Shown in pieces: positions 18,621 to 46,879 of a DNA stretch of 64,000 nucleotides. A model generated the notes under the pieces. That model was not told the DNA's origin. It did not search any database and was given only the letters and a program-made list of their open reading frames with translations. A program made the translations under genes and the position numbers. Within the stretch, counting starts at the first letter, position 1, and the number at the start of each line of letters is the position of its first letter. The stretch comes from Mobula hypostoma (lineage: Eukaryota), in contig NC_086108.1 in the NCBI RefSeq assembly GCF_963921235.1, positions 92,444,001 through 92,508,000 of the forward strand. Direction: 5' to 3'.

Positions 18621-21600
18621 TTAACGGAAGTTAGAGAAGTCAATGTTCATGCCATCAGGTTGGAGCCTACCCAGACGGAATATAAAGTGTTATTCCTCCA
18701 ACCTGAGTGCGGCTTCATCTTGACAATAGAGGAGGCCGTGGATAGACATATCAGAATGGGAATGGGATGTGGAATTAAAATGTGTGGCCACTGGGAGATC
18801 TTGCTTTCTCTGGCGGACAGAGCGTAGGTGTTCAGCGAACCAGTCTCCCAGCCTGCGTTGGGTCTCGCCAATATATAGAAGGCCGCACCGGGAGCACCGG
18901 ACGCAATATATCACCCTGGCCGACTCACGGGTGAAGTGCTGCCTCACCTGGAAGGACTGTCTGGGGCCCTGAATGGTGGTGAGGGAGGAAATGTAAGGGC
19001 ATGTGTAGCACTTGTTCCGCTTACAAGGATAAGTGCCAGGGAACTGTGGGATCAGTGGGAAGGGATCGGGGGGGTGGGGGGAACAAATGGACAAGGGAGT
19101 CGCGTAGGGAGCAATCCCTGCGGAAAGCGGAAGGGGGGGAGGGAAAGATGTGCTTGGTGGTGGGATCCCGTTGGAGGTGGCGGAAGTTACGAAGAATTAC
19201 ATGTTGGACCTGGAGGCTGGTGGGGTGGCGGGAGGATGGGGTGAGAGCAGATGTGCGTGCAATGGGAGAGATGCGTTTGAGAGCAGAGTTCATGGTGGAG
19301 GAAGGGAAGCCCCTTTCTTTAAAAAAAGGAAGACATCTCCTTCGTCCTGGAATGAAAAGCCTCATCCTGAGAGTAGATGCGGCAGAGACGGAGGAATTAC
19401 GAAAGGAGATGGCGTTTTTACAAGAGACAAGGTGGGAAGAGGAACAGTCTAGGTAGCTGTCAGAGTCAGTAGGCTTATAGTAGACATCAGTAGATAAGTA
19501 GTCTCCAGAGATACAGACAGAAAGATCAAGAAAGGGGAGGGAGGTGTCGGAAATGGACCAGGTAAACTTGAGGGCAGGGTGAAAGTTGGAGGCAAAGATA
19601 ATGAAGTCAACGAGCTCAGCATGCGTGCAGGAAGCAGCGCGAATGCAGTCGTCGACGTAGCGAAGGAAAAGTGGGGGACAGATACCAGTGTAGGCTTGAA
19701 ACATGGATTGTTCCACAAAGCTAACAAAAGGGCAGGCATAGCTGGAACCCATATGGGTGCCCATGGCTACACCTTTAGTTTGGAGGAAGTGGGAGGAGCC
19801 AAAGGAGAAATTATTAAGAGTAAGGATTAATTCCGCTAGATGGAGGAGAGTGGTGATAGAGGGGAACTGGTTAGGTCTGGAATCCAAAAAAAAGTGAAGA
19901 GCTTTGAGACCTTCCTGGTGGGGGATGGAGGTATAGAGGGACAGGGCATCCATGGTGAAAATAAAGCGGTAGGGGCCAGGGAACTTAAAATCATTGGGAA
20001 AATTCAGAGCGTGAGAAGTGTCACGAACATAGGTGGGAAGATATTGAACGAGGGGGGACAAAACAGTGTCGAGGTATGCAGAAATGAGTTCGGTGGGGCA
20101 GGAGCAAGCTGGACAGGCAGGTTTGTGGATCTTAGGTAGGAGGTAGAAACTGGAAGTGCGGGGTGTGGGAACTATAAGGTTGGTAGCAGTGGATGGGAGA
20201 TCCCCTGAGCTGATAAGGTTGGTGATGGTTTGGGAGACAGTGGCCTGGTGCTCCTTAGCGGGTACATGATCGAGGGGTAAATAAGAGGAGGTATCCGCGA
20301 GTTGTCACTGTGCCTCGGCAAGGTAGAGGTCAGTATGCCAGACTACAACAGTGCCCCCCTTATCGGTGGATTTTATAGTAAGGTTAGGATTAGTGTGGAG
20401 GGAGTGGAGAGCAGAGCGTTCGGAAGGAGTGAGGTTGGAATTGGAACAAGGTGCGGTGAAGTCGAGATGGTTGATGTCCCGTTGGCAGTTAGCAATAAAG
20501 AGATCCAGAGCAGGCAGAAGACCAGAGCGGGGTGACCATGAAGAGGAGGAGGGCTGAAGACGGGAGAAGGGGTCATCGGTGGGGTAGGAGAGTCCTTGCC
20601 GAAGAAGTAGGCTCGAAGACGGAGCTGGCGGAAGAAGAGTTCAGCGTTATGGCACACGCCATATTCACTGAGGTGTGGGCAAAGGGGGACAAAGGTAAGG
20701 CCCTTACTGAGGAAAGAGCGCTCTGCCTCGAGAGTTGAAGGTCGGAGGAGATGGTAAAGACCTGGCACGGATGAGAGCTGGGATCCGAGGGGGGACGGGG
20801 AGGGAGGCTGGTAGTGTCAGTGGAGAAGGGAGGGTTGGGCTGAGAAGAAGATGGAGCCTCTGAGGGCTCAGGAGCTGACGGTGGGATCTGAGGGAGACGG
20901 GGTTGCAGAGTGGTGGTAGGGTAAGGGGAGACGGGAGTCACAATAGCAGCACGTGAAGACCCAGCCTGCAGTTCAAGGCTGGAGTCGCAGTTGGAGGTTG
21001 CGCAATTGCTTTGAAGGTGTCCATGGTCATTGGAATCCGCATCGATGGTGCTGGAGTCTGGGTTTTGAATATGCCCTGGGTTGGTGGAGCCGCCGAGATC
21101 AATGGCGGGGGCCACAACCCAAAGTTCATGCCTGCCAGCATCGGAGCCAGCAGGCTCTGGGGTCTGCAGATGGAAGATCTTGCGAAGCTTGCCTAACATG
21201 ACAAAGTCAAAGAAATGGCGATTGCATGCATGGATCCGATGGAGGATGAAATAACGGGGAGGTCCATTATAAACGGCAAAGGAGGTGTCCCGGAGGTGTG
21301 GAAGGGTCTGGGATAGCGACGCCAAGTACCTCTTCATGGCGGAGAGGGTCGCCTTCAGAGCTTGACGGGAGAACCGAAGGGAGGCAGAGTCAATAAAATG
21401 TGAGTATCTGGGATCCTCAGAAGGTCCCAATTGAGAGGCTCGAAAACGAATCCTAAAGCCAAATGGAGTAAGTTCGCGGCAGAGACACATTCCAAGGAAG
21501 GATATATGGCTGTAGTAGCGAGTCTGAGTCAAAATGTGGTCGAAAAGTTGAAGGGCCAAAGAAATTATAGATGGGGAGCAGTGAGAGAGGGTTTCACTAA

Positions 21601-21643
21601 ACTCCCGAAGAGAAGATTTAAACTTCTTCAGTGTAGGCACCAC
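18621..21643 (-). pseudogene. Penelope-like ORF: N-terminal domain, P/S-rich linker, RT, Cys linker, GIY-YIG endonuclease (frameshifted)
   Basis: RT motifs MDALSLYTSIPH, QTKGVAMG and LRYVDD; linker PCKRNKCYTC; GIY-YIG VIYCVRCSRCGLLYIGETQRRL…EH; ends GMNIDFSNFR*. Split across several frames. Confidence 0.92.
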
Positions 21644-21964
21644 TGGAAGAGGCTTCGCAGTAGTGAATTTAAAAATGCAAACATGAGGAAATCTGCAGAT
21701 GCTGGAAATTCAAGCAACACACACACACAATGCTGGTGTAACGCAGGCCAGGCAGCATCTACTGGAAGTTCAAGTCATCATGAAGCAATTGATTTTTTTA
21801 CAGTAATCCTAAAAGAATTCTAACAGAAACAAATGCTGAAGAAAATTCATAGATGCATGTGAGCCCCCTATCTATTCATTTAGAATATCACTGCCTATAA
21901 AGTTCAGCAAGTTAAGGAAAATGAACAAAAGTCAAAACATCATCTAAAGCCATGCAAGTCCTTC

Positions 21965-30410: not shown

Positions 30411-30846
30411 AAGGGAAGTAAGGATAACGCAGTTATGCCACAATAGTGTAGCAGCACAACACTATTACATCTCAGGGAATCAGTTCTGGCATTCTCTACA
30501 AGAAGTTTGTATGTCCTCCCCATGGATTGTGTGGGTTTATTCCAGGTGCTCCAGTTTCCTCCCAGGCTCCAAAGATGTATTGGTTAGTAGTTTAACTGGG
30601 CATTGAAAATTGTCCCATGATCAGTCTAGGGTTAAGTCAGGAGTTGCAGCTGGAAGGGCCTATTCTGTGTTATATCTCTAAATAAAATTAATATAGAAGC
30701 CTGGACCAGGTTGGTCGGGACAGTGGCGGAAGCAGATACAATAGTGGTATTTAAGTGGCTGTGATAGATACATGACTATACAGGCAAAGGAGGAATATGG
30801 TTCAGGCAGAAGAGATTTAGTTTAATTTAGCTTTATGCTCATTGCA

Positions 30847-31075
30847 TGAAGCACCTTCAATAACTCCAAAAGACTGAAGTTGGGTAAAATACTGAAAGGC
30901 TTTTATTCGCTGTACAATACGACCTCCATGCTGAGAGTCTGCCCCCGGCCTGAGGGGGAGGGGCAAGGCAAAATCACCTTTATTCAGGGGGCTGAGGGAG
31001 GAGCCACAGGGGCAGTCAGCAGAGGGGCGTGTCCAGACAGTTAACCCCGTTACAACATATATATGGTTTACCACA
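30847..31075 (-). repeat. 3' LTR of Gypsy element 1
   Basis: Direct repeat of 35002-35230, about 16 substitutions by manual count, preceded by the PPT on the minus strand. Confidence 0.95.
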
Positions 31076-31144
31076 TTCACCCCTCCTCTTTTTTAAAAGA
31101 GTCCTGCGGGGTGAAGTGACTGACAATATTTAACACAAGTATAT

Positions 31145-34100
31145 TTACAGGTCAAGTCTATCAGGCGGTCGAGTCCGTCGCTGTGATCTACGTAGCACTG
31201 GTGGTGATTGCATCGGTGACGACGGTTGTGCTGGCTCCGGCCTGACTTGAGGTGCCAGCACATTAGGTGTTGTTAATCCTTCGTGCGTGTGCGTCGCGCC
31301 CGGTCTGGGAGTGTCATGCGGTGTCTGTGGAGGGCTTGGAGTGAGCAGTGTCTCGTGGGTACATACATCGGTGGGTACAGGGTTAATAGTCACCATGGAG
31401 TGTTCAGAGTAGGGGCCCGGTGCTCCTGCGGGCACCAGGTCGCGGATGGAGACCGTGTCCTCCCGCCCATCAGGTAAAACCACATAGGCATACTGGGGGT
31501 TCACATGAAGTAAGTGAACCCTCTCGACCATCGGGGAGTATTTATTGCTCTCGCATGTTTCCGGAGCAGCACGGGGACGTCAGCCAAGTTGGTAGGGTGG
31601 TCCCAGTGGTCGACTTTCTGGGAAAAGAAAAGAGCCACTCATGAGGGGTGGTATTGGTGGCCGTGCATAACGGAGCGGATGGAGTGGAGTGCCTCGGGAA
31701 GGACCTCCTGCCAGCGGGAGACCGGCAGTCCCTTTGATCTGAGGGCTAAGAGTGTGGCTTTCCACACCGTGCCATTCTCCTTTTCCACCTGTCCATTCCC
31801 CCGGGGATTATAGCTCGTGGTCCTACTAGTTGCAATTCCCCTAGCCAGTAAGTACTGGCGCAGCTCGTCACTCATAAACGAGGACCCTGTCACTGTGGAT
31901 ATAGCATGGGTATCCAAACAGAGTGAAGAGCTTGCGCAGGGCTTTTATAACTGACGTGGTAGTGGTGTCAGGGCAGGGGATGGCAAAGGGGAACCGCGAG
32001 TACTCGTCAATAACGTTAAGAAAGTACACATTGTGGTCGGTGGAGGGAAGGGGGCCCTTAAAGTCAACACTCAGTCGCTCAAAGGGGCGGATGTCCTTGA
32101 TGAGTTGTGCCTTTTCGGGTCGGTAGAAGTGCGGTTTGCACTCTGCACAGACTTGGCAGTCGCTGGTCATTGTCCTGATCTCCCCAAGGGAGTAAAGCAG
32201 GTTCCGGGCTTTCACGAAGTGGAAAAGCCAGGTGACCCCCGTGTGGCAAAGATCTACATGTAGGGCATATAGCCAGTCGATCTGGGCGCTGGCGCACGTT
32301 CCCCGGGATATGGCATCAGAGGGCTCGTTGAGCTTCCCAGGCCTGTACATGATGTCATAGTTGTAGGTTGAGAGTTCGATTCTCCACCTCAGAATTTTAT
32401 CATTTTTGATTTTGCCCTGCTGTTGGTTATTAAACATGAATGCGACTGAGCGCTGGTCAGTTAGCAGGGTGAACCTTTTGCCGGCAAGATAGTGCCTCCA
32501 GTGCCTAATAGCTTCCACTATGGCCTGGGCCTCTTTCTCCACTGCGGAGAGCCGAATGTCAGGGCCTTGAAGAGTATGGGAGAAGAACGCCACTGGTCTT
32601 CCCGCCTGGTTAAGGGTAGCAGCCAGTGCAAAGTCGGAGGTGTCGCTCTCTACTTGGAAGGGAATGGCCTCATCCACCGCATGCATTGCTGCTTTGGCAA
32701 TGTCCCCTTTTATGCGGCTGAAGGCCGCAAGGCCTTGGCTCAGAGGGGGACTGTGGTGGACTTGACCGGGGGCGGGCCTTGTCTGCGTAGTTAGAGACCC
32801 ATTGGGCTTAATATGAAAAGAAGCCCAGGCACCTTTTGAGGGTTCTGAGGGTGTTGGGAAGAGGGAGTTCCAACAGGGGACGCATACGGTCGGAGTCAGG
32901 GCCAATGACTCCGTTCTCCACGACACACCCAAGGATAGCAAGTCGAGTGGTCCCGAATACACACTTGTCCTTGTTATAGGTGAGATTGAAAACTTTGGCC
33001 GCTTGGAGGAATTTTTGGAGGTTGTTGTCTTGATCCTACCGGTCGTGACCGCAGATGGTGATGTTATCCAGCTATGGGAACGTGGCCTTCAGTTGGCACT
33101 GGTCCACCATACCTCTGGAAGACAAATACACCATTCGTGACACCGAAGGGGACGTGCAGGAATTGATAAAGCCTCCCGTCTGCCTCGAAGGCGGTGTAAG
33201 GGCGGTCCTCTCGGCGGATGGGAGCAGATGGTAAGTGGATTTTAGATCTATGGTCGAGTACACCTTGTACTGTGCTATCTGATTGACCATATCCGCGATG
33301 CGGGGTAGAGGGTACGCGTCGAGCTGCGTGAACCTATTGATGGTCTGGCTATAGTCCATGACCAACCTATTCTTCTCTCCGTTCTGAACTTGCCTCAATG
33401 ACCCCCTCCCTGAGCAGCCGCTGCACCTCCGACTTAATGAAAGCTCTGTCCCCCGCGCTGTACCTACTGCATTTAGTTGTCACAGGTTTATACTCGGGGG
33501 TCAGGTTGGCAAACAGCGGTGGGGGAGGGATCTTGAGGGTGGAGAGGCCGCAAGTGGTGTTGGTAGTGCGGCAGTTGGCATGGTGTTGGGTGGGATGTGC
33601 GGGTCAGTGTGTGTGTGTGGTCAGTAGTGGGGTATGTGAAGTATCCCTACAAAACTGGGGATTTACAACAGTAATTGGTGGGAGGGGCCCATCATACTTC
33701 ATTGTCACGCTTTTCAGGTGGCTCTGGAAGTCAAGCCCCAATAGCACAGGGGCACACAGTTGAGGCATGACCAGTAACATAAAGACTCGATATTCTGTGT
33801 CCTGCACCACTAGCGTCGCTACACAAACTCCCCGGATGTCTGTTGTATGCGACCCAGAAACCATGGTGACCCTCTGACTTACCGGCCGTATCTCGAGTCT
33901 GCAATGCTGCAGCGTGTCCGGGTGGATAAAACTCTCCGTGCTGCCTGTGTCAAACAGGCAGCTTGTTCTGCGCCCCTCCACCAGGATGTCCATCATTGAC
34001 CTTGCGAGCTGGTGGGGAGTGCTTTGGTCGAGGGTCACGGAGGCCAGGGTGAGTTGCTGTCTTGGTCCGGCGCGGTGGGGTGCCCCATGAGCACCCGTTG

Positions 34101-34975
34101 GTTGTAGGCGGTGGGAGGGGGTGCTGACCAAGATGGCGATCCCCATGTCTCGCATGTGGTGGCGGCGTGCAGGGAAGATGGCGGCAAGCAAGATGGCGAC
34201 CCCCATGTCTCGCACACGGCACTGTTCGATCCTGCTCGTGATTTGGACTTACAGACCTTGGCGAAGTGGCCCTTCTTTCCGCAGCTGGAGCAGGTAGCTT
34301 GTCGAGCCGGGCAGCGTTTCCGGGGGTGCTTCTCGAGTCCGCAGAAGTAGCACTTCGTGGACTCGTGACTGGCGGCAGCCGAGGTCGATTCGCCGGTGGG
34401 TTGTGGGGTCTGCGGCACCCACCAGGCCGTCAGCGGATCGCGTGCCTGGAGAGCCTCGGAGTTATGCAGAGCAGCCTCCAGCGTGTCGGTCAGCTCGATC
34501 GCCGAACTTAAGGTAAGATCGGCTTTCTCCAACAGCCACTGGCGCACATACACTGACCTGGTCCCCGTGACAAAGGCGTCTCTCACTAGGAGTTCTGTAT
34601 GCTGCGCCGCCGTCAGCTCCTGGCAATTGTAGGCTCGCATGAGTGTCCATAGGGCCTGGACGAACTCAGCACTTGATTCCCCGGGCCATTGTTGCCATGT
34701 CACTAAGCGATGCCGAGCATAGACGCTGTTTATCGGCCGCAGGTATTGTCCTTTGAGGGCGCTCATCGCGCCGTCGTAGCTCGGCTGGTCTCTGATCAGC
34801 GAATAGACCCGTGGACTGACCCTGGAGAGTAGAACTCTGCGCTTCGCTACAGGGTCTTCACTTTAATCTCCTCTAGGTACGCTTCGAAGCAGGCCAGCCA
34901 GAGTTCGAAAGCGTTTCCAGCTTCAGGCGTTTGCGGATCAAGGTCTAACTTGTCGGATCTCAGAGAGTGTTCCAT
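31145..34975 (-). pseudogene. gag-pol of Gypsy element 1 (gag, PR, RT, RNase H, integrase)
   Basis: Gag double knuckle CYFCGLEKHPRKRC…CSSCGKKGHFAKVC; PR LFDTGS; RT DAYPLPRI…IDLKSTYH; RNase H VESDTSDFALAA…EKEAQAI; integrase H…H…CQVC, SVDFKGP, HSD, GNGQVEKEN. Contains stops and frameshifts. Confidence 0.93.
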
Positions 34976-35001
34976 GCTTTAAAATTTACAGCGAATAAAA
35001 T

Positions 35002-35230
35002 TGAAGCACCTTCAATAACTCCAAAAGACTGAGGTTTGGTAAAATACTGAAAGGCTTTTATTCGCTGTACAATACGACCTCCATGGTGAGTGTCTGCCCC
35101 CGGTCTGAGGGGGCGGGGCAAGGCGAAATCACCTTTGTACAGGAATCTGAAGGAGGAGCCACAGGGGCAGTCAGCAGAGGGGCATCTCCAGACAGTTAAC
35201 CCAGTTACAACATATATATGGTTTACCACA
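35002..35230 (-). repeat. 5' LTR of Gypsy element 1
   Basis: Upstream of the gag ATG (34975); contains AATAAA on the minus strand. Confidence 0.95.
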
Positions 35231-35964
35231 GTGCAACCATTGTGGGCTGAAGGGCTTGCTCCTGTTCTGTATTGTTCCATGTTGGAATTATCCAGTTTGC
35301 AATACAGTTCATCAACATCAGTGAATAATCCTAGTTGACAGTTTATTTTATATTATGAAATGATAAGGTTTTATTGATAAACAATTTCAAATGCAAGTTA
35401 TTGCTGAAAAATAAACCATATTGAAGTCCTGAAAATTGAAGTAAACTGCACAGGCTGTACGTGCTTAATCCAAGGTGGTTGATAATTTGGACGTGACAAG
35501 CTAAAAATGAAAATCTATTTTAAAAGCATTCGGCCATCAATGTAATTATTTTGATGCATTTTTTCAACATATCTCACAAAATTGCAAAATTTTAAGGGTT
35601 TATTGTTTCCAGAATTTATTTTATACTTCAGATTATCAATGACTGCAGTTTCATTAATCTGAAATGGAATTTCTGCCGTCTTGCACTGACTTGACATAAC
35701 ATTGATCTGTTTGAGCAGAAAAAAAACCAAAATTGATCAAGAGCAGACGATACATGTGTTAACATGTCCTGGCCTAGATACAGTACAAAACTGGGCAGGG
35801 AAAGCATGATTCTAACTCATCAAAACCTGATAGTATTATTAAAGTTTTCACCTGACCAAAACAAACTCAATGTAGGGCCCTTTGGGCTTGGAATGGGTCA
35901 CCTGCTCTGCTTTGCATCAATCAACTTTGCTGTGTTATTTTGTACCTTGTTTTCCACATTTCCA

Positions 35965-37135: not shown

Positions 37136-39058
37136 ATAGAGAGCGAAATACCCACTACAAGTATCAAACTTTCTTGCAACAGACACAGATCAATTTAGCT
37201 TAAGGACTTAATCTGTTGGTTGGGAAATTCCTTCAGCTGTCTAACAGAAGGCTGCAAGTGAAATCTGAGCCATTTGCTTTTATCACTTGCCTAAATTAGA
37301 TCGCTAGTCCTTAATTAAATTTGTGTCAGACATGGATAGAACTGTAGTTTGTTTGACGTTATGTTTAGAAACACAGTTGTACCGAGGAGGTACAAGAGCC
37401 TGAAAACCCACAATCAATGATTCAGAAACCGCTTCTTTCCATCTGCCATCAGATTCCTGAACAGTCCATGAGCTCTTCCTCATTATTCTCTCTGTTTTGC
37501 ATATTTATTTATTTTGTAATCTATAGTAACTTTATGTCTTTGCATTCTACTGCTGCCACATAACAAGAAATTTCATGTCATCTGAGGCAGTGATAATGAA
37601 TCTGATTCTGATTCAACTTTCCGCGAAGAACCCTTTTGAAGACTTAGTTATTTAAGATTCAAGATAAAAAGATTTAAGATTGTTTAACATCATTTCCTGT
37701 ACACAAGTGTAAAAGAGAACAAAATAATTATTATTTTTAAAACAATGAAACAATCATAAGATATAGAGCACAATAAATATAAATATTTAAGAGAGTTTAT
37801 AGACATCCTAGATTAACTGTATGTCCATAAAGAGATACGAGGCACAGGGGTGTCTATGCATGACGTGACTCATGGGAAGTGATAAAGTGTTGGTGATTGG
37901 AGTGTGCAGGGTGGGTCTCTTCAAAATTCAAAATTGTTTAATGCCATTTCCAGTACTCAACTGTAAGCAGAATTAAATGATTTTACTCCAAATCTGATGC
38001 AGCAAAAAAAAACCACGAGTGACAAACATGAGAAAGTCTGCAGACGCTGGAAATCCAAAGCAACACACAAAAAATGCTTGAGGAACTCAGCTGGTCAGGC
38101 AGCATCTATGGAAATGAATAGATAGTCAACATTTCAGGCCGAGACCTTTCTTTAGGACCCAAAAAATAAAAAACACAGTGGTAATTTAAAAAAATACACA
38201 CACAATAAATACATAAGATAACTTATATAGATAGATTGATTGTATGTCCGTAAAGTGACACTAGCCTGTACAAAAGATGACTGATGGGAAATAATAAAGT
38301 GGTAGTGGAGTTAGGGGGTGAAGGTGTTGATCAGAGTTAATACTTGGAGAAAGTAACTGCTCTGAGTCTGGTGGTCCTGGCATGGATGCTACATTACTGC
38401 TCCCTGATGAGAGTGGGAGCAGGGTGTGTGGGATCCTTCATGATGCTATCAGTCCTCTTCTGGCAGCTTTCTGCATATACAGTTGTAACCCTCAGGCTCG
38501 CCCAGCTCATGTTCGTCTAGGGAAACAGCCTTCGGCCCCGCCAAACCGGGTAATCACGTTTGTGCGGATACTGTGTAATGTACTCCCAGTAATAAACCCA
38601 CAACGCAAAATATCAGACAGTACGCCATATGCAATTAAATGATTGAACTTCATGAATCTTAATCTGAATATAGGGTTAGAAATGAAAATAAACAAAAACA
38701 AAAAGGGCCCAAGTCAAGTCAAAGGCACGTTGGAGCTCACTCAGTAGTCACTCTTCCACCATCGGTCTCCTCCGAGCGTTGCCGACCTTCGGACCCTCAG
38801 ATCCCAGTCCACTCCGTCCAGTGGTCTACCAGCTCTCTCCACACGCGTCTTCCCTCTTCATCTCTCCTCGACAAAAGACCACAAAAACAACATGCTTCCA
38901 GATACACAAGACAAAACAATAATCTCCGATTGGCTAACATGCATACTACAGTCCTGTTGTCTCCAGCCATAACCCAAACATTGCTGCCACAGAGAAACCG
39001 TTACCTCAGCAGTGAACATTACAGCAAAGCCATTACATTCTCCCCCCACCAAATTTAG

Positions 39059-42000
39059 TTATGTCCTCATGACGTTGAGATAATTCGCCAACCCTTCCTG
39101 CAAAACACAAAGCCCAATCCAGGTGCAAAAGGCAGTGACAAAGCTCCCCAAAACAGTAGAGATCACGCCCTGTTCCCCAGGCGTGACATGGGCCAACCTA
39201 TCCGGTGGTCTCCTAATTCTCTGAGACCTCCGTACCTCCTCACCTAACACTTCAGGCTCAGACGCTACTGGGGTTACTTTGGGTCTACTTGGCGAATCCT
39301 CCCTCGATCTATCACTCATGCCCCCCTACAACTCATAACCCTCTGTCCCGTGTCCAGGCCCTGCTTCCTCTCCTTCAGGGTCCTGTTGTAACCCAGACTA
39401 CCCACAGATAGCCCCCCCCCCACTTCACCTGACTCAGTGGGAGAAGGGCCAGGACTCTCTTCCTTAATCAATGGGGAGTTAGTGAAAGGCAGCAGGTACC
39501 ACACATCCAGATCATCATCCTCCGAATCAGTATCCCTCTCATGGGCGGGCCCCAGCCCAGCCTCCCCTGCTGTGGGCCCCGCAGGTACCCCGCGTTTCCG
39601 CAGAGTCCTCTTACCAGGTGTAGGCTCCAAGTCCGGCTCTGGGTCTACCCGAACCTCTTGTCCCAGGGGCAACAGGTGGTTCCGTTGGAGAATCTTGACA
39701 GACCCATTCCCCTCCTCTGGTTTCACCCGGAAAACTGGTAGGTTTGGCATCTGACTCTCCACCACATAGGGTGCGGCCGCCCAGCGGTCAGCCAACTTAT
39801 GCTTTCCAGGTAACCCCAAATTCCTTATGAGGACTCTGTCTCCCAGCGGGAGTTGGGAAAACCTCACTTTCTGACCATACCTCCTCTTATTTCCTCGATT
39901 CTGCTTGGCGGCCGTGACCCCAGCAAATTCATAAGCCCTTTTCAGCTCTCTCCTCATATCAGACACATACTTCAGATAAGGCTTCCGTAGTAAGTCACTC
40001 TCGTCAGTCCCAAAGCAAAGGTCAGTGGGCAACCTCGCCTCTTGCCCAACCATCAGATAATATGGTGAGTATCCAGTAGCTTCATTTCATGTACAGTTGT
40101 AGCAGTGATTCAGATGCCCTATATGATGACTCCACCTGCTCTTCTTGCTGATCTCCAGGATCACGGGCATGTCTAGCAAGGTCCGATTAAAGCTCTCAGG
40201 CTGGGGATCGCCCTGCGGGTGATAGGGCGTGGTCCTCGACTTCTCAACTCCAAGCATGCCCAGTAACTCATAGATGAGTCTGATCTCAAAGTCCCATCCC
40301 TGGTCACTATGTATCTGCCTGGGAAGGCCACAATAAAAGAAATACTTCTCCCATAACACTTTTGCCACCGTAGTCGCCCTCTGGTCCTTGGTAGGAAAAG
40401 CGTGAGCATATCTGGTGTAGTGGTCCGTGATGACTAAGACATTTGCCGTGTTGCTGGCATCGGGTTCTATGGACAGGAAATCCACACACTAGGTCCGGGG
40501 GCCCTGCACTCTGCAAGTGGGCAAAGGAGCTGCCTGCGTAGGCAGTGCCTTCCACCGTATGCAGCAAACACACGACTTGCAGTATTCTTCAAACCTCCGA
40601 CTTCATTCGGGGCCAGTAAAACCGGTCTCTGAGCAATCCATAGGTCTTTTCCACCCCCAAATGTCCAGAATCGTCATGAAGTGACTTCAACGCAATCCTC
40701 CGATACTTCTCAGGCAGAACAGCTGACAACGCCGGGGTCGGTCCAGGGGTGACGTGACCCGGTATAAGATCTGGTTCTTCAACTCCAACTGAGGTCATTC
40801 TTTCAGTAATGGAGGCACCGAAGCGTGTTTCGTCTTCTCTGCTTGAACCATGTCTCCCTTTTCGATCACGGACCAAATAGTGCCAATGTCTGGATCATCT
40901 CACTAAGCAGTTGCCACTTCCCCAGAACTCAATTCTGGCAGCCGATTGGTCTTCAGAGCAGTCAGGTTACAGAAAACTTGGGGTATGGCGTCATCAGAAG
41001 CTCCCAATTGATCCACTGCTCGATCCTGCCTCTCCTTTTCCTCTGCCTTCATGGTGATGGCAAACTGACACATGGCCTTCAACCCAGGGGCAGGAACGCT
41101 CTCCCACTCCTCGTCCCTGTCCAGTCCCTCACGCACCTGTTGGGCCAAAGCACCCGCATCAATATTCCCGCTCCTCAGCCGGTACTTCAGGCTGAAATCA
41201 TAGGCAGACAACGCTGCCAACCACCAATGGCCTGTGGCATCCAGTTTCGCTGAGGTCAGGATATAAGTCAGGGGGTTGTCGTCCGTCCTCACCTCAAACT
41301 TGACCCCATACAGGTAGTCACTCAGCTTATCCACCACCGCCCATTTCAACACCAGGAATTCCAACTTGTGTGTGAGATAGTTTCTCTCGGATGGCGACAA
41401 ACTCCAGCTGACAAACACCACAGACCTCAACCCGGTGCCCTGATCTTGATACAGGATGCCCCCTAAATCCTCTCAAATCCTCTGTGTGCAGTACGTACGG
41501 TAATTGGGGGTCCACAAAAGCCAGCACTGGCACCTGGGTCAGCAACTCCTTCAGCAACTGAAAAGTCTACTCACATTTTACATCACACCTCTGTCCAAAG
41601 GGCTCCAACGGGTATTCTCCACCCTCCTGTCCTTTTTTCCCCCTCTCTTTCTTCCCCAAGGGAGGGTAACCACACAGAAGCTGATTCAAGGGGTGACTCA
41701 CTTTGGCATAGCCCTTCACGAATCTCCGATAATAACCACAGAACCCAAGGAACGAGCGCAAAGGGCTTACAGTCTGGGGCCTTGGCCAAGTGGTCACCGC
41801 TTCTATCTTAGCCAGGTCTGTAGCTGCTCCCTTCCATGAGATTATGTGTCCAATATAGCTAACAGACATTTGGCAGAACTGGCACTTGTCCAGGGAAAGT
41901 TTTAAGCCTTCAGCTTTCAGGCAGCTGAGCACCTTCAGTAGCCTCGCTTCTTGTCCTTCCATATGAGGTCATCCAAATACACCAACACCTCAAGGAAGTT

Positions 42001-44280
42001 CATATCCCCCACTGTCTTCTCCATGACCCGCTGGAAGGTTGCCGGGGCTCCCGATATGCCCTGGGGCATCCTTTCGAACTGGAAGAACCCCAGGGGACAT
42101 ATAAATACCGTCTTCTCTTTGTCGGTCTCACTCATCGGGATCTGGTAATATCCACTCCTCAAATCCAGCACACTAAACCATTTTGCACCACTCACACAGG
42201 CCAGCGCGTCTTCGATCCTTGGGACCGTATACTGGTCAGAGATGGTGTGCCTGTTCAGAGTCTTTAGTCCACACACATGCGTACCTTCTCGTTCTTCTTC
42301 CAGGCCACTGTAATTGGGGACGATTAAGGGCTTTCGGGACTCAGTGATGATCCCAGCTTCCTTCAACTTACACAAGTGCTGCCGCACGTCTTCCATGTCT
42401 GCAGGGGCCAGTTGCCACAACCTCTCTGTAAGCAGGGTGTCCTCGGTCACCTGGATAGTGTGATGAGCGCTCTTGGAACAACCCACATCAAACTCGCCAG
42501 TGGAAAAGACACCTTCCAATCTATGTTCCCTCTAAGCTGTGCTCGTGTAAGCGCACGCACACGTTTTTCAACCAGCGCACAAGGGAAATTAATATGCACA
42601 CAAAAGGTTAGTTACCTAAAATAATGTAGTAATTAATAATTATACTTACTGAAAATAATCTTTTAGCTAATTGTTTCTGTTAACTAGTTAGTTGCTTTTT
42701 CAAATACCATTATGCACGTCACTAATTTACGTCACCTCACCTTTCCTTTTCCAGTTTGTACAGCTGCATCACGGCGGCAGCCATCTTTGGCGGATAGTGT
42801 TCATATCGTAAAGTTTACAAAGATCTGTTTCAAATCCTGTAGATAGCTTACTAAGTTTTTATTGAAAAGAATATTGATTCAGTATGTCGAATTCAAAAGA
42901 AGTGAAGGGCGTGAAGTGCAAAGGAACTGTAAATTTGTTTAAAGTTGAATGGCTTAACAAAATAGTAGAAACTGGTACACTGAAATAATGAATCAACTCA
43001 AAAACAAGTTGAGAAACCGTTTAGGTGAATGTCATTTGGATATGTTAATCAGAATCAAAAGCTATCAATTGGATGGAAGTTCTATTAATCTAGATAGAGT
43101 TTACAAAGAATGGGTAAATGTCAAAGACAGGAAAGAGAAAAAATAACTGAGTGACTTAAATATGTATGTTATTCTGTTGTTATTCTGTGCAGTTTTATGT
43201 CAAATATTTTGTAAACCTACATAAACTGTGCCACGTGTACATTCAGTGCGCACATACTTCTGTCACAGGAAAAAAATTTGCACAACATAAGATTTTTACG
43301 CACACTGACTACTAAAAATTAGAGGGACATTGCTACCAATTTCAACGTCTTCTTTACCAGCCTCCTTTTCCAACCCGGCGGCACTGGGGAGTCCCTGAAA
43401 TTGAATGACACAGCGGTCAACTTTCCCCCCTTTTCCAATAGTTTCTCTCCGGCGTGCCTCACGGGGGCACTAGACATTACCGTCACCGGGAACAAATGCG
43501 CCAGGGACATCCCCTGATTGAAGGTGGCCTCCCTCTTCGTAGTGTTCCTGACAATCACTGGCACCTGCTCACCTGTACAACCGAGGACTTCTGCAATTTG
43601 GGCCTCACCAGTACCCCCCAGCAGGAAATCCCGACTTCCCCTCATGGTCTTCCGGAGCGTCTGCTAAGACGGCTTTGCCCTCAGGCACTCCGGGAAATTT
43701 GGGGGTCCCCATCACTCTCGCTACTTTCCCGGGCCGTTCCACCATTGGCTTTGACTGGGTGAACCACACAGACCCTCGTTTAAATTCGGTATCCAGCCCA
43801 ATGCTGCCACGCACTTCCTCAAAAGCAGCTCGAAACACTGGGTGCACAGACAATGTCCCCAGAAAGCTCTCACCCGCATTCTCCTTGCAGGCCCCCATGA
43901 GCCTCCTCACAAGAGGGGTGTTGGTCCCCACCAGAATTGAAATGCCGCCTGTCTCAACAGGGTCCGGACAAACCAGCACCACTGTATCAAGAACCTCAGA
44001 CATTCCCACAGTGGCCTCCGAGAACTCCAGTTTCACTGACAAATAACCATCATATGGATAATCACCAGTACTAATACCCCAAATCTCCAGTGCACTGAAT
44101 GGTATTAAGGGTAAATGCTTCGGATACCGGTTGTAAAACGAATGGTACAGTAATGTGACCCCGACCCGGTGTCGAGTATGGCTTTAACGTATATTCCTTC
44201 TATCCGTAGCGACACACTGGAGCATAGTCCCACTAAGCCTTCAGGAATAGGGTCTTTTGTTTTCAGGAGTTCTTGGTACA
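39059..44280 (-). pseudogene. pol of Gypsy element 2 (PR, RT, RNase H, integrase), interrupted by a hAT insertion
   Basis: PR ILDTGS; RT SVLDLRSGYYQ…RMPQGISGAPATFQR…YLDD; RNase H KLEFLVLKWAV; integrase HDDSGHLG, DFL…HSDQG…PQGDPQPE. Confidence 0.92.
42521..43332 (+). mobile_element. Internally deleted hAT transposon inserted in Gypsy 2 pol
   Basis: TIRs ctatgttccctctaa / ttagagggacattg; 8-bp TSD cttccaat / ctaccaat. N-terminal stub MSNSKE…FKVEWL (42884) abuts the C-terminal dimerisation segment MNQLKNKLRNRLGECHLDMLIRI (42988-43146). Confidence 0.9.
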
Positions 44281-44335
44281 TTGCTGGGAATGTGTTCCCC
44301 CAGAGACATCAGGCCAATTCCTCACTGGGTCTCCC

Positions 44336-45765
44336 CTAAGTTTCCCGACACCTCTCCCTGCTTAGATACCTGGGGGCTTGCTCTCCGAGGGACCTCCTGC
44401 CGCTCACATTCCCACTGGAAGTGTCTCTCTTCCCCACAGTTATAGCACACGCTACCAGCTGCCCCTCTTCTCGTGGAACCCCGGCCACCTGCAGCCCTCT
44501 GCGTAGTCCGTCCCCTTGGGGGGGGGCCTCTCTACCAGTCCTATCATACGGAGGGTCCACACCTGCTGTTAACACCTGGGACATCTCAGTTCTCAGCTCT
44601 GCCACCATCTCCTTTACCATTTCCCGGGTTGGGCTGGCCCCGGTAACTTCACCACAAGGGGCTACTACCAAGGACTGTACCCTGCTGATGGAGTCCTCTC
44701 GCGGCCCCAACATGTTCTCCTCCTCCCGCACTTCTCTGATCAGCTGAACAAATTAGGGAGGGGGGGCACGTTTTACAGGACTGCTAGAGACCCCAAGCAA
44801 TCATGTCCTGGGGCTGGGTGCCCTTGGCTATCTGGTCCATCCTTAACTTAACCACCTCAGCCGCCTGAATGGCCCCCCAGTGCCGCAAACAATTTAGCTG
44901 TCTCTCTAACCGAGAGAGGTACACGGAAAGCTTCTCCCCCTTCTCCTGATGCATGTTTTGAAACCCCCCCCCCCAGTGCTCCAGTGGGCTCCCTGTCATA
45001 CCAAAAGCTCTCTCTAATGTGCCTAGATACTCAGCAAGAGGAACAGAGGGTTGATTAATTGTCACGCCTCTTACTACATCAGCCGCCAACCCCTTCAAAC
45101 TTTCAACCAATCTCTGTTGCTTTTCATCATCAGAGCACTGCCACTCATCTAACAACTGAGAGGTCTGCTCCACCCACATCTCATACTCCTGTTCCCCTCG
45201 GGGGTGGGCGCTATTCCAGAGAAAATTCTTACCTTCCGGCGGGGACCCGCTGCCTGTGCATTGGGCCAATTATTCGCCTGGGAGGTAAGGGCTTATGTCA
45301 ACTCAGAACCTTCACTCTTCACTGGGGGATGGGGACTAATTAAACTTTCCAAATCCGACCACTCTTTCCCCTCACCCCTCAGAAACGATAGAATCCTCTC
45401 TCTGAAATCTCCACCCCAACTGCAGGCAACTCAGCTTGTGACCCGTGACCCAGCTTGCTGGGCTCCCTTCTCCTCCTCCCTGACAGTGTGGACAGGCCAT
45501 GGCCCCACCTCACCTGGGGCACCGATAGATGCTGGCAGTCCCACAGCCGTTACGTCAGCGCAATTCTGAATTAAAACTGGTCTGAGCCCACCATTTTATC
45601 AAACCTTCGCGCTACGATTTCAACTTCGCCAACAGCTTTAACCATACTCAAAAATCGAATTAACAATCCATCCGGGGTATGAATATCCATCCCACTCAAC
45701 TCGCATGCATTAATTACTGGCAACCCCACAGAGGCACACTAGCGCTCCACCCCAGCAGTATCCAT
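44336..45765 (-). pseudogene. PNMA/Ma-like gag of Gypsy element 2
   Basis: PRGEQEYEMWVEQTSQLLDEWQCSDDEKQQRLVESLKGLAADVV, typical of PNMA-like capsids; CCHC knuckle CYNCGEERHFQWEC near 44400-44450; frameshifted. Confidence 0.85.
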
Positions 45766-45807
45766 ACTAGCACAAATAGGGCAATCACACATCATCCAAT
45801 GGAATCA

Positions 45808-45825
45808 ATCCCGGATGAGCCCCCA
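45808..45825 (-). promoter_or_regulatory. Primer-binding site complementary to the tRNA-Pro 3' end
   Basis: TGGGGGCTCATCCGGGAT, one mismatch to the canonical tRNA-Pro PBS TGGGGGCTCGTCCGGGAT, 4 nt inside the 5' LTR. Confidence 0.92.
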
Positions 45826-46879
45826 CAATTGTAACCCTTAAGCTCGCCCAGCTCATGTTCATCTAGGGGAAACAGCCTTTGGCCCCGCCAAACTGGGTAA
45901 CCATATTTGTATGGATACTGTGTAATGTACCCCCAGTTACAAACTCACAACGCAAAATATCAGACAGTACACCATATGCAATTAAATGATTGAGCTTTAT
46001 GAATCTTAATCTGAATATAGGGTTAGTAATGAAAATAAACAAAAAAAGGGCCCAAGTCAAGTCAAAGTCACGTTGGAGCTCACTCAGTAGTCATTCTTCC
46101 ACCATCGGTCTCCTCCGAGCATTGCTGACCTTCGGACCCTCAGATCCCAGTCCACTCCGTCCGATGGTCTACCAGCTCTCTCCACATGCGTCTTCCCTCT
46201 TCATCTCTCCTCGACAAAAGACCACGAAAACAACACCCTTCCAGGTACACAAGACAAAACAACAATCTCCGATTGGCTAAAATGCATACTACAGTTCTGT
46301 TATCTCCAGCCATAACCCAAACATTGCTGCTACAGAGAAACCGTTACCTCAGCAGTGAACATTACAGAGAAACCATTACATTAGCCTTAGCAGTGAAACA
46401 TTACAAAGAAGCCATTACACAGTATATCCTTGGTGGCGGGTAGATTGTAATGCACTGAATGTATTTTGTTTGACGTTGTTATGTTTAGAAACAGAGCTGT
46501 AGCGAGGAGGTACAGAGCCCTGAAGACCCACACTCAATGATTCAGAAACAGCTTCTTCCCGTATGACAGGTAATGCATTTGTTAAATATTTCTTCCTCTC
46601 AATGGCTCAACAGGGGATACATTTGCAAAGGATTCATACTCATTTTTGACTTGCTTGAAGTCAACTATGATGATATACATTGGCAGAATAAGCACAATAA
46701 GAATATAGCTTCTCTCACAAAATCAGTTTTGAATATAAGTCTTAATTAGCAAGGAGTAAGAAGGAACGGAGGTCAGGAAGTGGGATGCTCTCAACATAGA
46801 CGTCTTGTGTTTTACTTCTTTGATGTAACTGGAATTATTAATTTTTCTTTGTTCTGTTTCACATCTCTGTTCTGACACT

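Follow-up and report, generated by a model that had tools for sequence, protein, structure and literature searches.

A predicted tRNA-free self-priming stem in a chromodomain-less lineage of animal Ty3/Gypsy elements

The window, the whole 64,000-nt stretch of Mobula hypostoma DNA analyzed here, carries on its minus strand an element that is placed in Ty3/Gypsy based on its direct TG...CA LTRs, a polypurine tract (PPT), a target duplication and the order protease-RT-RNase H-integrase. Its features are listed below in window coordinates, together with a control site in a neighboring element.

35230 to 30847, minus strand: whole Ty3/Gypsy element, 4384 bp
35231..35235, minus strand: target-site duplication, upstream copy TGCAC, 4/5 match
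35002..35230, minus strand: 5' LTR, 229 nt, TG...CA, last bases GCTTCA
35133..35139, minus strand: predicted TATA-like box, TACAAAG in the window copy
35105..35106, minus strand: predicted transcription start at a TCAG that resembles an initiator, 31-33 nt below the TATA-like box
35056..35069, minus strand: LTR arm TACAGCGAATAAAA, LTR bases 162-175, predicted 3' end of a self-primer
35062-35057, minus strand: AATAAA within the LTR arm
between 35056 and 35055, minus strand: putative cut
35001..35055, minus strand: 55-nt loop (rest of R, U5 and a 1-nt spacer), predicted minus-strand strong-stop template
34987..35000, minus strand: PBS-position arm TTTTATTCGCTGTA
31145..34975, minus strand: gag-pol, one decayed frame with gag, protease, RT, RNase H and integrase
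34251..34352, minus strand: two CCHC zinc knuckles of gag, seen in translation
31076..31094, minus strand: PPT
30847..31075, minus strand: 3' LTR, containing the same arm at 30914-30901
30842..30846, minus strand: target-site duplication, downstream copy TGCAA
45808..45825, minus strand: control PBS for tRNA-Pro in the neighboring PNMA-gag Gypsy element, 17/18 against host tRNA-Pro 3' ends

The two LTRs are identical at 213 of 229 positions. The gag-pol of the window copy is interrupted by stops and frameshifts and contains neither a chromodomain nor env; another natural copy encodes gag, protease, RT (YLDN), RNase H and integrase in a single frame of 1341 aa, again without a chromodomain. The predicted transcription start corresponds to LTR base 125-126, and TATAAAG is the TATA-like box in 42 of 62 junction matches (60 loci, partly overlapping). 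Between the knuckles and the protease, at residues 255-340 of L031:902-4924, lies a ~15-aa repeat (CETWG...) of variable copy number. Elsewhere on the minus strand of the window, two long stop-free frames without a Pfam hit are found at 19021-21709; the 427-aa frame among them resembles, by eye, a Penelope-type RT (motifs GVAMG and YVDD). The neighboring Gypsy element (38520-46332, minus strand) has a PNMA-type gag, LTRs that are ~92% identical and a tRNA-Pro PBS beginning four bases past the LTR end.

An earlier note on this DNA had claimed that the 5' LTR lacks an ordinary primer site, and the minus strand bears this out: the LTR ends in GCTTCA, a single A (35001) follows, and then comes TTTTATTCGCTGTA (35000-34987) without a TGG. 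The further claim that this 14-mer is exactly complementary to the element's own LTR also holds, as TTTTATTCGCTGTA is the exact reverse complement of TACAGCGAATAAAA (35069-35056) with 55 nt between the two, and the LTR arm recurs unchanged in the 3' LTR at 30914-30901. Of 12 inverted-repeat pairs with arms at most 300 nt apart in 30700-35400, this pair ranks first and is the only one of 100% identity. Anchored complements did not exceed 8 nt when the LTR was shuffled 3000 times with dinucleotides preserved, and the expectation with independent letters is 3e-7. When the leader is folded from the predicted start the stem is included (-38.1 kcal/mol, z -3.1). Two features go beyond the earlier note: the LTR arm contains a poly(A)-like signal, AATAAA, ~45 nt after the predicted start, and the arm begins 37 nt downstream of that start and not at it. 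The 55-nt loop opens with GCC, and a second hairpin is predicted in it. No Rfam family, ribozymes included, matches in 34850-35300.

To be copied, an LTR element requires a primer with its 3' end adjoining the LTR end. A search of the site against host tRNAs, which had been proposed as a check, was made with 30 ARAGORN calls, a partial set of ten isoacceptor types, and the best complement among these was 5 nt. An Rfam tRNA search, with 30 of 60 matches examined, led to loci carrying tRNA-Lys only, and none of four T-loop pattern matches in the genome was called as a tRNA. The neighboring Gypsy element was likewise correctly proposed as a control, its PBS matching host tRNA-Pro at 17 of 18 positions.

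A first look at the Mobula genome gave 2911 candidates by DNA search and 9426 by protein search. The exact pattern of the inner 8 pairs occurs at 656 junctions, and the reversed control at none. Among the 30 best DNA matches, 14 have the perfect 14-nt stem and the others one or two decay changes; in these 30 the arm is conserved at 97%, equal to the LTR overall (97%), and such within-family conservation carries no information on pairing. Variation between subfamilies, counted here as copies and not events, is coupled: where the arm carries T at pair 11, the PBS carries the compensating A in 37 of 38 exact matches, and four loci show a third such variant, compensated at pair 8. Two further loci have a PBS change of pair 11 without an arm change. 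For covariation at the outer pairs, 30 copies were chosen by the inner 8 pairs alone; 26 copies have A-T and four have T-A at pair 11, and at pair 15 there are 19 with G-C and four with T-A, again as copies and not events. That the stem in the window copy arose by chance or local inversion is refuted. A/T-rich sequence does make short complements likelier, but the genome-wide count against its reversed control, the shuffles (8 nt at most) and the stems of relatives, which are built of other letters, all contradict it.

Relatives of the element are widespread, with 1073 proteins matching at E 1e-50. The named protein matches come from rays (82-94% identity), an electric ray, a catshark, Trichuris suis and Actinostola, and cluster members also from Porites, Acropora, Montipora and Pocillopora; the viral contigs searched held no relatives. 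Stems were scored in the Mobula genome and in 80 metagenome and 8 MAG contigs, the named hosts being protein matches. The MAG contigs (L115-L122), filed as bacterial, are probably animal DNA through host contamination. From 89 loci (88 and the window copy), 47 without a gag start and 5 with short upstream sequence were set aside, which left 37 for scoring. Perfect stems of 11-18 nt occur in 29 of the 37, with one further stem of 10 nt and one of 9 nt; 740 shuffles gave no stem of at least 11 nt and six of 10. The six scored loci without a stem include two with old LTR pairs (L084 and L098, 83% and 73%) and three in which no LTR pair was seen (L065, L081, L107); the RT of the sixth, L108, is the same as that of L107.

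By our own grouping the 31 stems fall into 19 families. Across these ~19 families the register is common (CA-N-TTT... and ...TAAA|RCC) while the arm letters differ. With CA-N as the anchor, Watson-Crick pairs make up 358 of 372, with 13 mismatches, nine of which fall in L101 and L047, and one G-U, a count that rests on 31 loci selected for possessing a stem; the predicted loop hairpins, taken for comparison, have 24 G-U among 168 pairs. The first three pairs are almost always A-T, GCC or ACC directly follows the arm in 14 of the 19 families, and a hairpin begins within 3 nt of the arm end in 16. Loop length ranges from 24 to 68 nt. Coupled changes of arm and PBS are also seen between near-identical copies (L042 against L041/43/52/53; L036 against L037/38). 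Compensatory changes, which the earlier note had suggested looking for, are therefore present between subfamilies (pairs 8, 11 and 15) as well as between families. Pair 10 is G-C in 17 of the 19 families while adjacent pairs vary. In six loci (L049, L072, L090, L101, L103, L121) a pyrimidine tract and then CAG, resembling a splice acceptor, lies 20-45 nt above the arm; these tracts may be due to chance in T-rich LTRs.

The same data bear on whether the primer is a tRNA fragment or some other small RNA of the host, with the LTR match being secondary. Internal tRNA fragments are described as priming some Copia elements (PMC6317226, PMC10886601), the arms are partly alike across families in their TAAA end and in the G at pair 10, and the tRNA sample comprised ten isoacceptor types only. 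However, the site varies by family and subfamily and always in step with the LTR, and neither the sampled tRNAs, at 5 nt, nor Rfam offers a partner, making such a primer very improbable.

A different alternative is that the stem only masks the 5' poly(A) signal and that something else primes. Retroviral poly(A) hairpins prevent premature polyadenylation, and here AATAAA or ATTAAA closes the arm in 12 of the 19 families, the signal lies ~45 nt after the predicted start, and the partner is outside the LTR, so that only the 5' copy would be masked. Under this scenario, however, the element would have no primer site at all, and the fixed 1-nt gap to the LTR end, the almost complete lack of G-U pairs and the families whose arms end in GTTAAA, GGTAAA or TTTAAA would be left unexplained; nor does masking predict the junctions described below, which run from the PBS into the complement of the LTR. 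We regard masking as the sole role as quite unlikely, but the stem may well mask the 5' poly(A) signal as a second function.

To place the lineage, RT trees of 94 rows (quick) and 59 rows (FastTree) were built, the latter after removal of 29 additional metagenome rows and of 6 rows that were near-duplicates or long. In both trees the lineage forms one side of a long branch with full support. The comparison rows outside it (5 sushi-type, 13-14 Mag-like, 5 Barthez-like and 4 Gmr1-like) carry group labels that we assigned by domain content, PBS, NCBI names and sequence motifs. The Mag-like set consists of 13 K02A2.6-like proteins that we take to be Mag-like from a motif and their NCBI names, with no reference Mag/SURL sequences among them. 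Mean RT identity to the lineage is 30% for the sushi-type, 27% for the Mag-like, 31% for the Barthez-like and 30% for the Gmr1-like rows, compared with 60% inside the lineage. PNMA-gag elements have been linked to Barthez (PMC3670739). AU tests on 25 rows reject no sister-group pairing (p 0.20-0.53), including that of the lineage with chromoviruses (p-AU 0.405), where the chromoviruses are represented by sushi-type RTs of this genome.

The RT placement that had been called for thus sets the lineage apart from the sushi-type and Mag-like RTs, and the AU tests single out no sister. The suggestion that the element is Mag/SURL-like stands for its gag, with two CCHC knuckles, and its short LTR and single ORF are also Mag-type traits; it does not stand for the RT, which is 27% identical to the Mag-like RTs and falls outside their clade, and there is no TGG for a tRNA-Leu/Ser PBS. 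Against the five sushi-type RTs the lineage is a clade of its own, but the proposal that it is independent is not borne out, as chromovirus sisterhood is not rejected. The stated lack of a visible chromodomain was borne out by Pfam: neither a chromodomain nor SH3_Tf2-1 gave a hit at E 0.05 in L031 (whole ORF) or L033, and none is listed for 120 relatives. Judged from RT and domain sequence, the lineage is a compact, chromodomain-less animal Ty3/Gypsy clade. Cigr-1 of Ciona intestinalis has ~245-bp LTRs, one ORF of ~1200 codons, a SURL-like gag and an unrelated RT. By these features it may be the named clade to which this lineage belongs. The Cigr-1 clade and the mollusc MolGy clades are named in PMC6238403. 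Mag elements (A, B and C clades; SURL), as described in PMC3286476, PMC6238403 and PMC2774666, resemble the lineage in short LTRs, a length of 4-5 kb, one ORF, a 5-bp target duplication, two CCHC knuckles and a wide range among marine animals. However, tRNA-Leu, -Ser or -Arg sites are described for Mag elements of Culex (PMC3286476), and the window copy has no TGG after its LTR.

Two of 30 sampled junctions in the Mobula genome lead into an inverted LTR copy instead of gag. Two patterns gave 57 and 14 such junctions, and all 71, examined by script, are made up of LTR, the A spacer, PBS and inverted LTR. In 25 of the 71, ~390-430 bp long where measured, the LTR and A are followed by inverted bases 175-1 with a perfect 5-bp target duplication; five further palindromes have a 4-of-5 target duplication and four have none. 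Another 14 junctions reach base 1 with the left end not resolved, two are 3' LTRs of longer elements carrying an inverted piece, in eight the inverted copy passes U3 into the PPT and pol, and 13 are without a recognizable base 1, five of these ending within 20 nt of it. At five loci (L258, L259, L261, L262, L266), direct LTRs with matching 5-bp duplications bound long insertions in which an inverted piece is followed by a switch back.

The short inverted copies number ten (20, 31, 31, 33, 35, 40, 50, 50, 50-52 and 55 nt), and none of them reaches farther into U3 than 55 nt from the arm end. Three of them (L229, L254, L273) end at the predicted transcription start: L254 stops there and continues with three extra bases and a 5-bp duplication, and L229 and L273 jump to internal sites with short shared homology (microhomology). 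The remaining seven stop elsewhere, at 20-40 nt or 55 nt. Most inverted copies extend to LTR base 1 or past the PPT; as such copies need a DNA or 3'-end template, they are silent on the origin of the primer. Template switching during chromosomal replication was rejected as a source of the palindromes, since TG...CA termini flanked by a 5-bp target duplication are not what it would produce. A simple inversion between the PBS and the 3' arm was rejected too: it would retain the internal region and fits at most L258 and L260.

Based on the covariation, the fixed register, the scarcity of G-U pairs, the lack of a match among the ten tRNA isoacceptor types sampled and the inverted junctions through the PBS, the self-priming put forward in the earlier note is well supported at the level of sequence, and tRNA-free priming by the element's own ~50-nt 5' RNA leader is the probable way in which reverse transcription starts. 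Under this scenario, transcription would start at about 35106 and the leader would fold so that the LTR arm pairs with the PBS arm, thereby hiding AAUAAA in the 5' copy only. The RNA would then be cleaved between ...UAAA and the conserved GCC hairpin, probably by the RNase H of the element itself as in Tf1, leaving the ~50-nt leader as primer. RT would copy the 55-nt loop (24-68 nt in relatives) and make its jump by way of a short R that lies between GCC and the poly(A) site. When the plus strand copies the primer end, the PBS would be rewritten from the arm in every cycle, which would explain the perfect Watson-Crick covariation and near-zero wobble.

The palindromic insertions are likely by-products of this self-priming step. 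Plus-strand DNA would pass the LTR end and spacer and end in the complement of the arm, and could pair with any plus-sense arm; at times its end would pair with an arm and not with the minus-strand PBS, yielding palindromic or partly inverted insertions. Pairing on strong-stop DNA would produce molecules that end at base 1 and are integrated by their two U3 ends, pairing on longer plus strands would be another route to inverted pieces, and pairing on the RNA leader would give an inverted copy ending at the transcription start. The path from a mispaired molecule to a repaired insertion is conjectural. For Tf1 cDNA, a single-stranded PBS end kept in about half of the molecules is described in PMC11042837. 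Logan contigs of four presumed-RNA runs showed no molecule ends.

The junctions also bear on which copy of the arm would act. It has to be considered that the arm acting as primer lies in the 3' R, either of the same RNA or of a second packaged one, and is cut after TAAA, as the arm occurs in both LTRs and the eight of 71 junctions that pass U3 into the PPT and pol are expected from a 3'-end template. However, the 5' arm is separated from the PBS by 55 nt and forms a fold with it (z -3.1), the predicted RNA 5' end is where three junctions stop, and the full inverted LTR at L259 needs a DNA template. Products of the L259 type, given that need, are explained by plus-strand mispairing. A 3'-R primer is thus unlikely, and priming by the 5' leader remains the preferred reading.

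Self-priming is itself known. It is described for Tf1/sushi and Tcn1 chromoviruses and predicted for the TAR/Houba Copia elements (PMC6317226), and Tf1/Tf2 of Schizosaccharomyces pombe and Tj1 of S. japonicus are described as using self-primed reverse transcription (PMC7175516, PMC4600332, PMC6317226). The lineage has in common with Tf1/sushi a PBS complementary to the element's own LTR, the lack of a tRNA site and the need for a cut to free the primer end. Whereas the Tf1 primer is given as the RNA's first 11 bases (PMC7175516, PMC4600332), that of the lineage would be a ~50-nt leader, and its arm, unlike that of Tf1, begins 37 nt downstream of the predicted start, measures 10-18 nt and covers a poly(A)-like hexamer. 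Sushi-type chromoviruses of the Mobula genome (L125-L130), located via PF24626, have 10-11 perfect pairs in two of the ten loci examined (L126, L127) and 8 pairs in two; their PBS partner lies 31 nt below a TATA-like box and, in three loci, ~174 nt above the LTR end. As read from these positions, the sushi-type elements show Tf1 geometry. The arm of the lineage, in contrast, is 24-68 nt from the PBS, and the lineage further differs from the sushi-type in having no chromodomain and an RT that is 30% identical and outside the five sushi-type RTs. For the plant Copia elements TAR/Houba/Osr-1, self-priming has been predicted from LTR-PBS complementarity, as in the lineage, but these belong to another superfamily and to plants (PMC6317226); being outside the chromoviruses, they mean that separate cases of self-priming are already on record. 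In the literature searched, which did not extend to Repbase Reports, GyDB and most subscription papers, no account was found of the stem or the palindromes in non-chromovirus animal Gypsy elements.

Self-priming has been demonstrated only in the fission-yeast element Tf1; for related elements and some plant Copia elements it has been inferred. More tentatively, the separate observations could be joined: a large animal Gypsy clade, in rays, sharks, corals, anemones and a nematode, might prime without tRNA separately from Tf1/sushi, with one helix both masking the poly(A) signal and setting the primer end, a capped leader of ~50 nt, strong-stop DNA down to 24 nt in length, and palindromes of ~400 bp bearing two U3 ends as fossils of priming and of the transcription start. 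We consider this combined picture possible, though doubtful as a whole. A widespread animal clade of differing geometry is relevant to whether tRNA priming descends from hairpin priming or the latter evolved repeatedly, a question raised in PMC3601003. If true, self-priming would presumably place these elements beyond the reach of control by 3' tRNA fragments, would explain why PBS-based annotation overlooks them, and would offer a source of RT/RNase H predicted to cut an RNA duplex at TAAA|GCC. The palindromic by-products would provide an in-genome record of where plus strands end and account for a class of TIR-like repeats that might pass for DNA transposons.

Two minor observations concern the inverted copies. 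At L307, L308 and L245 the left LTR and the inverted copy differ at subfamily-variable sites, which suggests that each drew on two different template molecules. At L295:968-5380, a complete element with a matching 5-bp duplication carries an inverted U3 piece between its PBS and leader.
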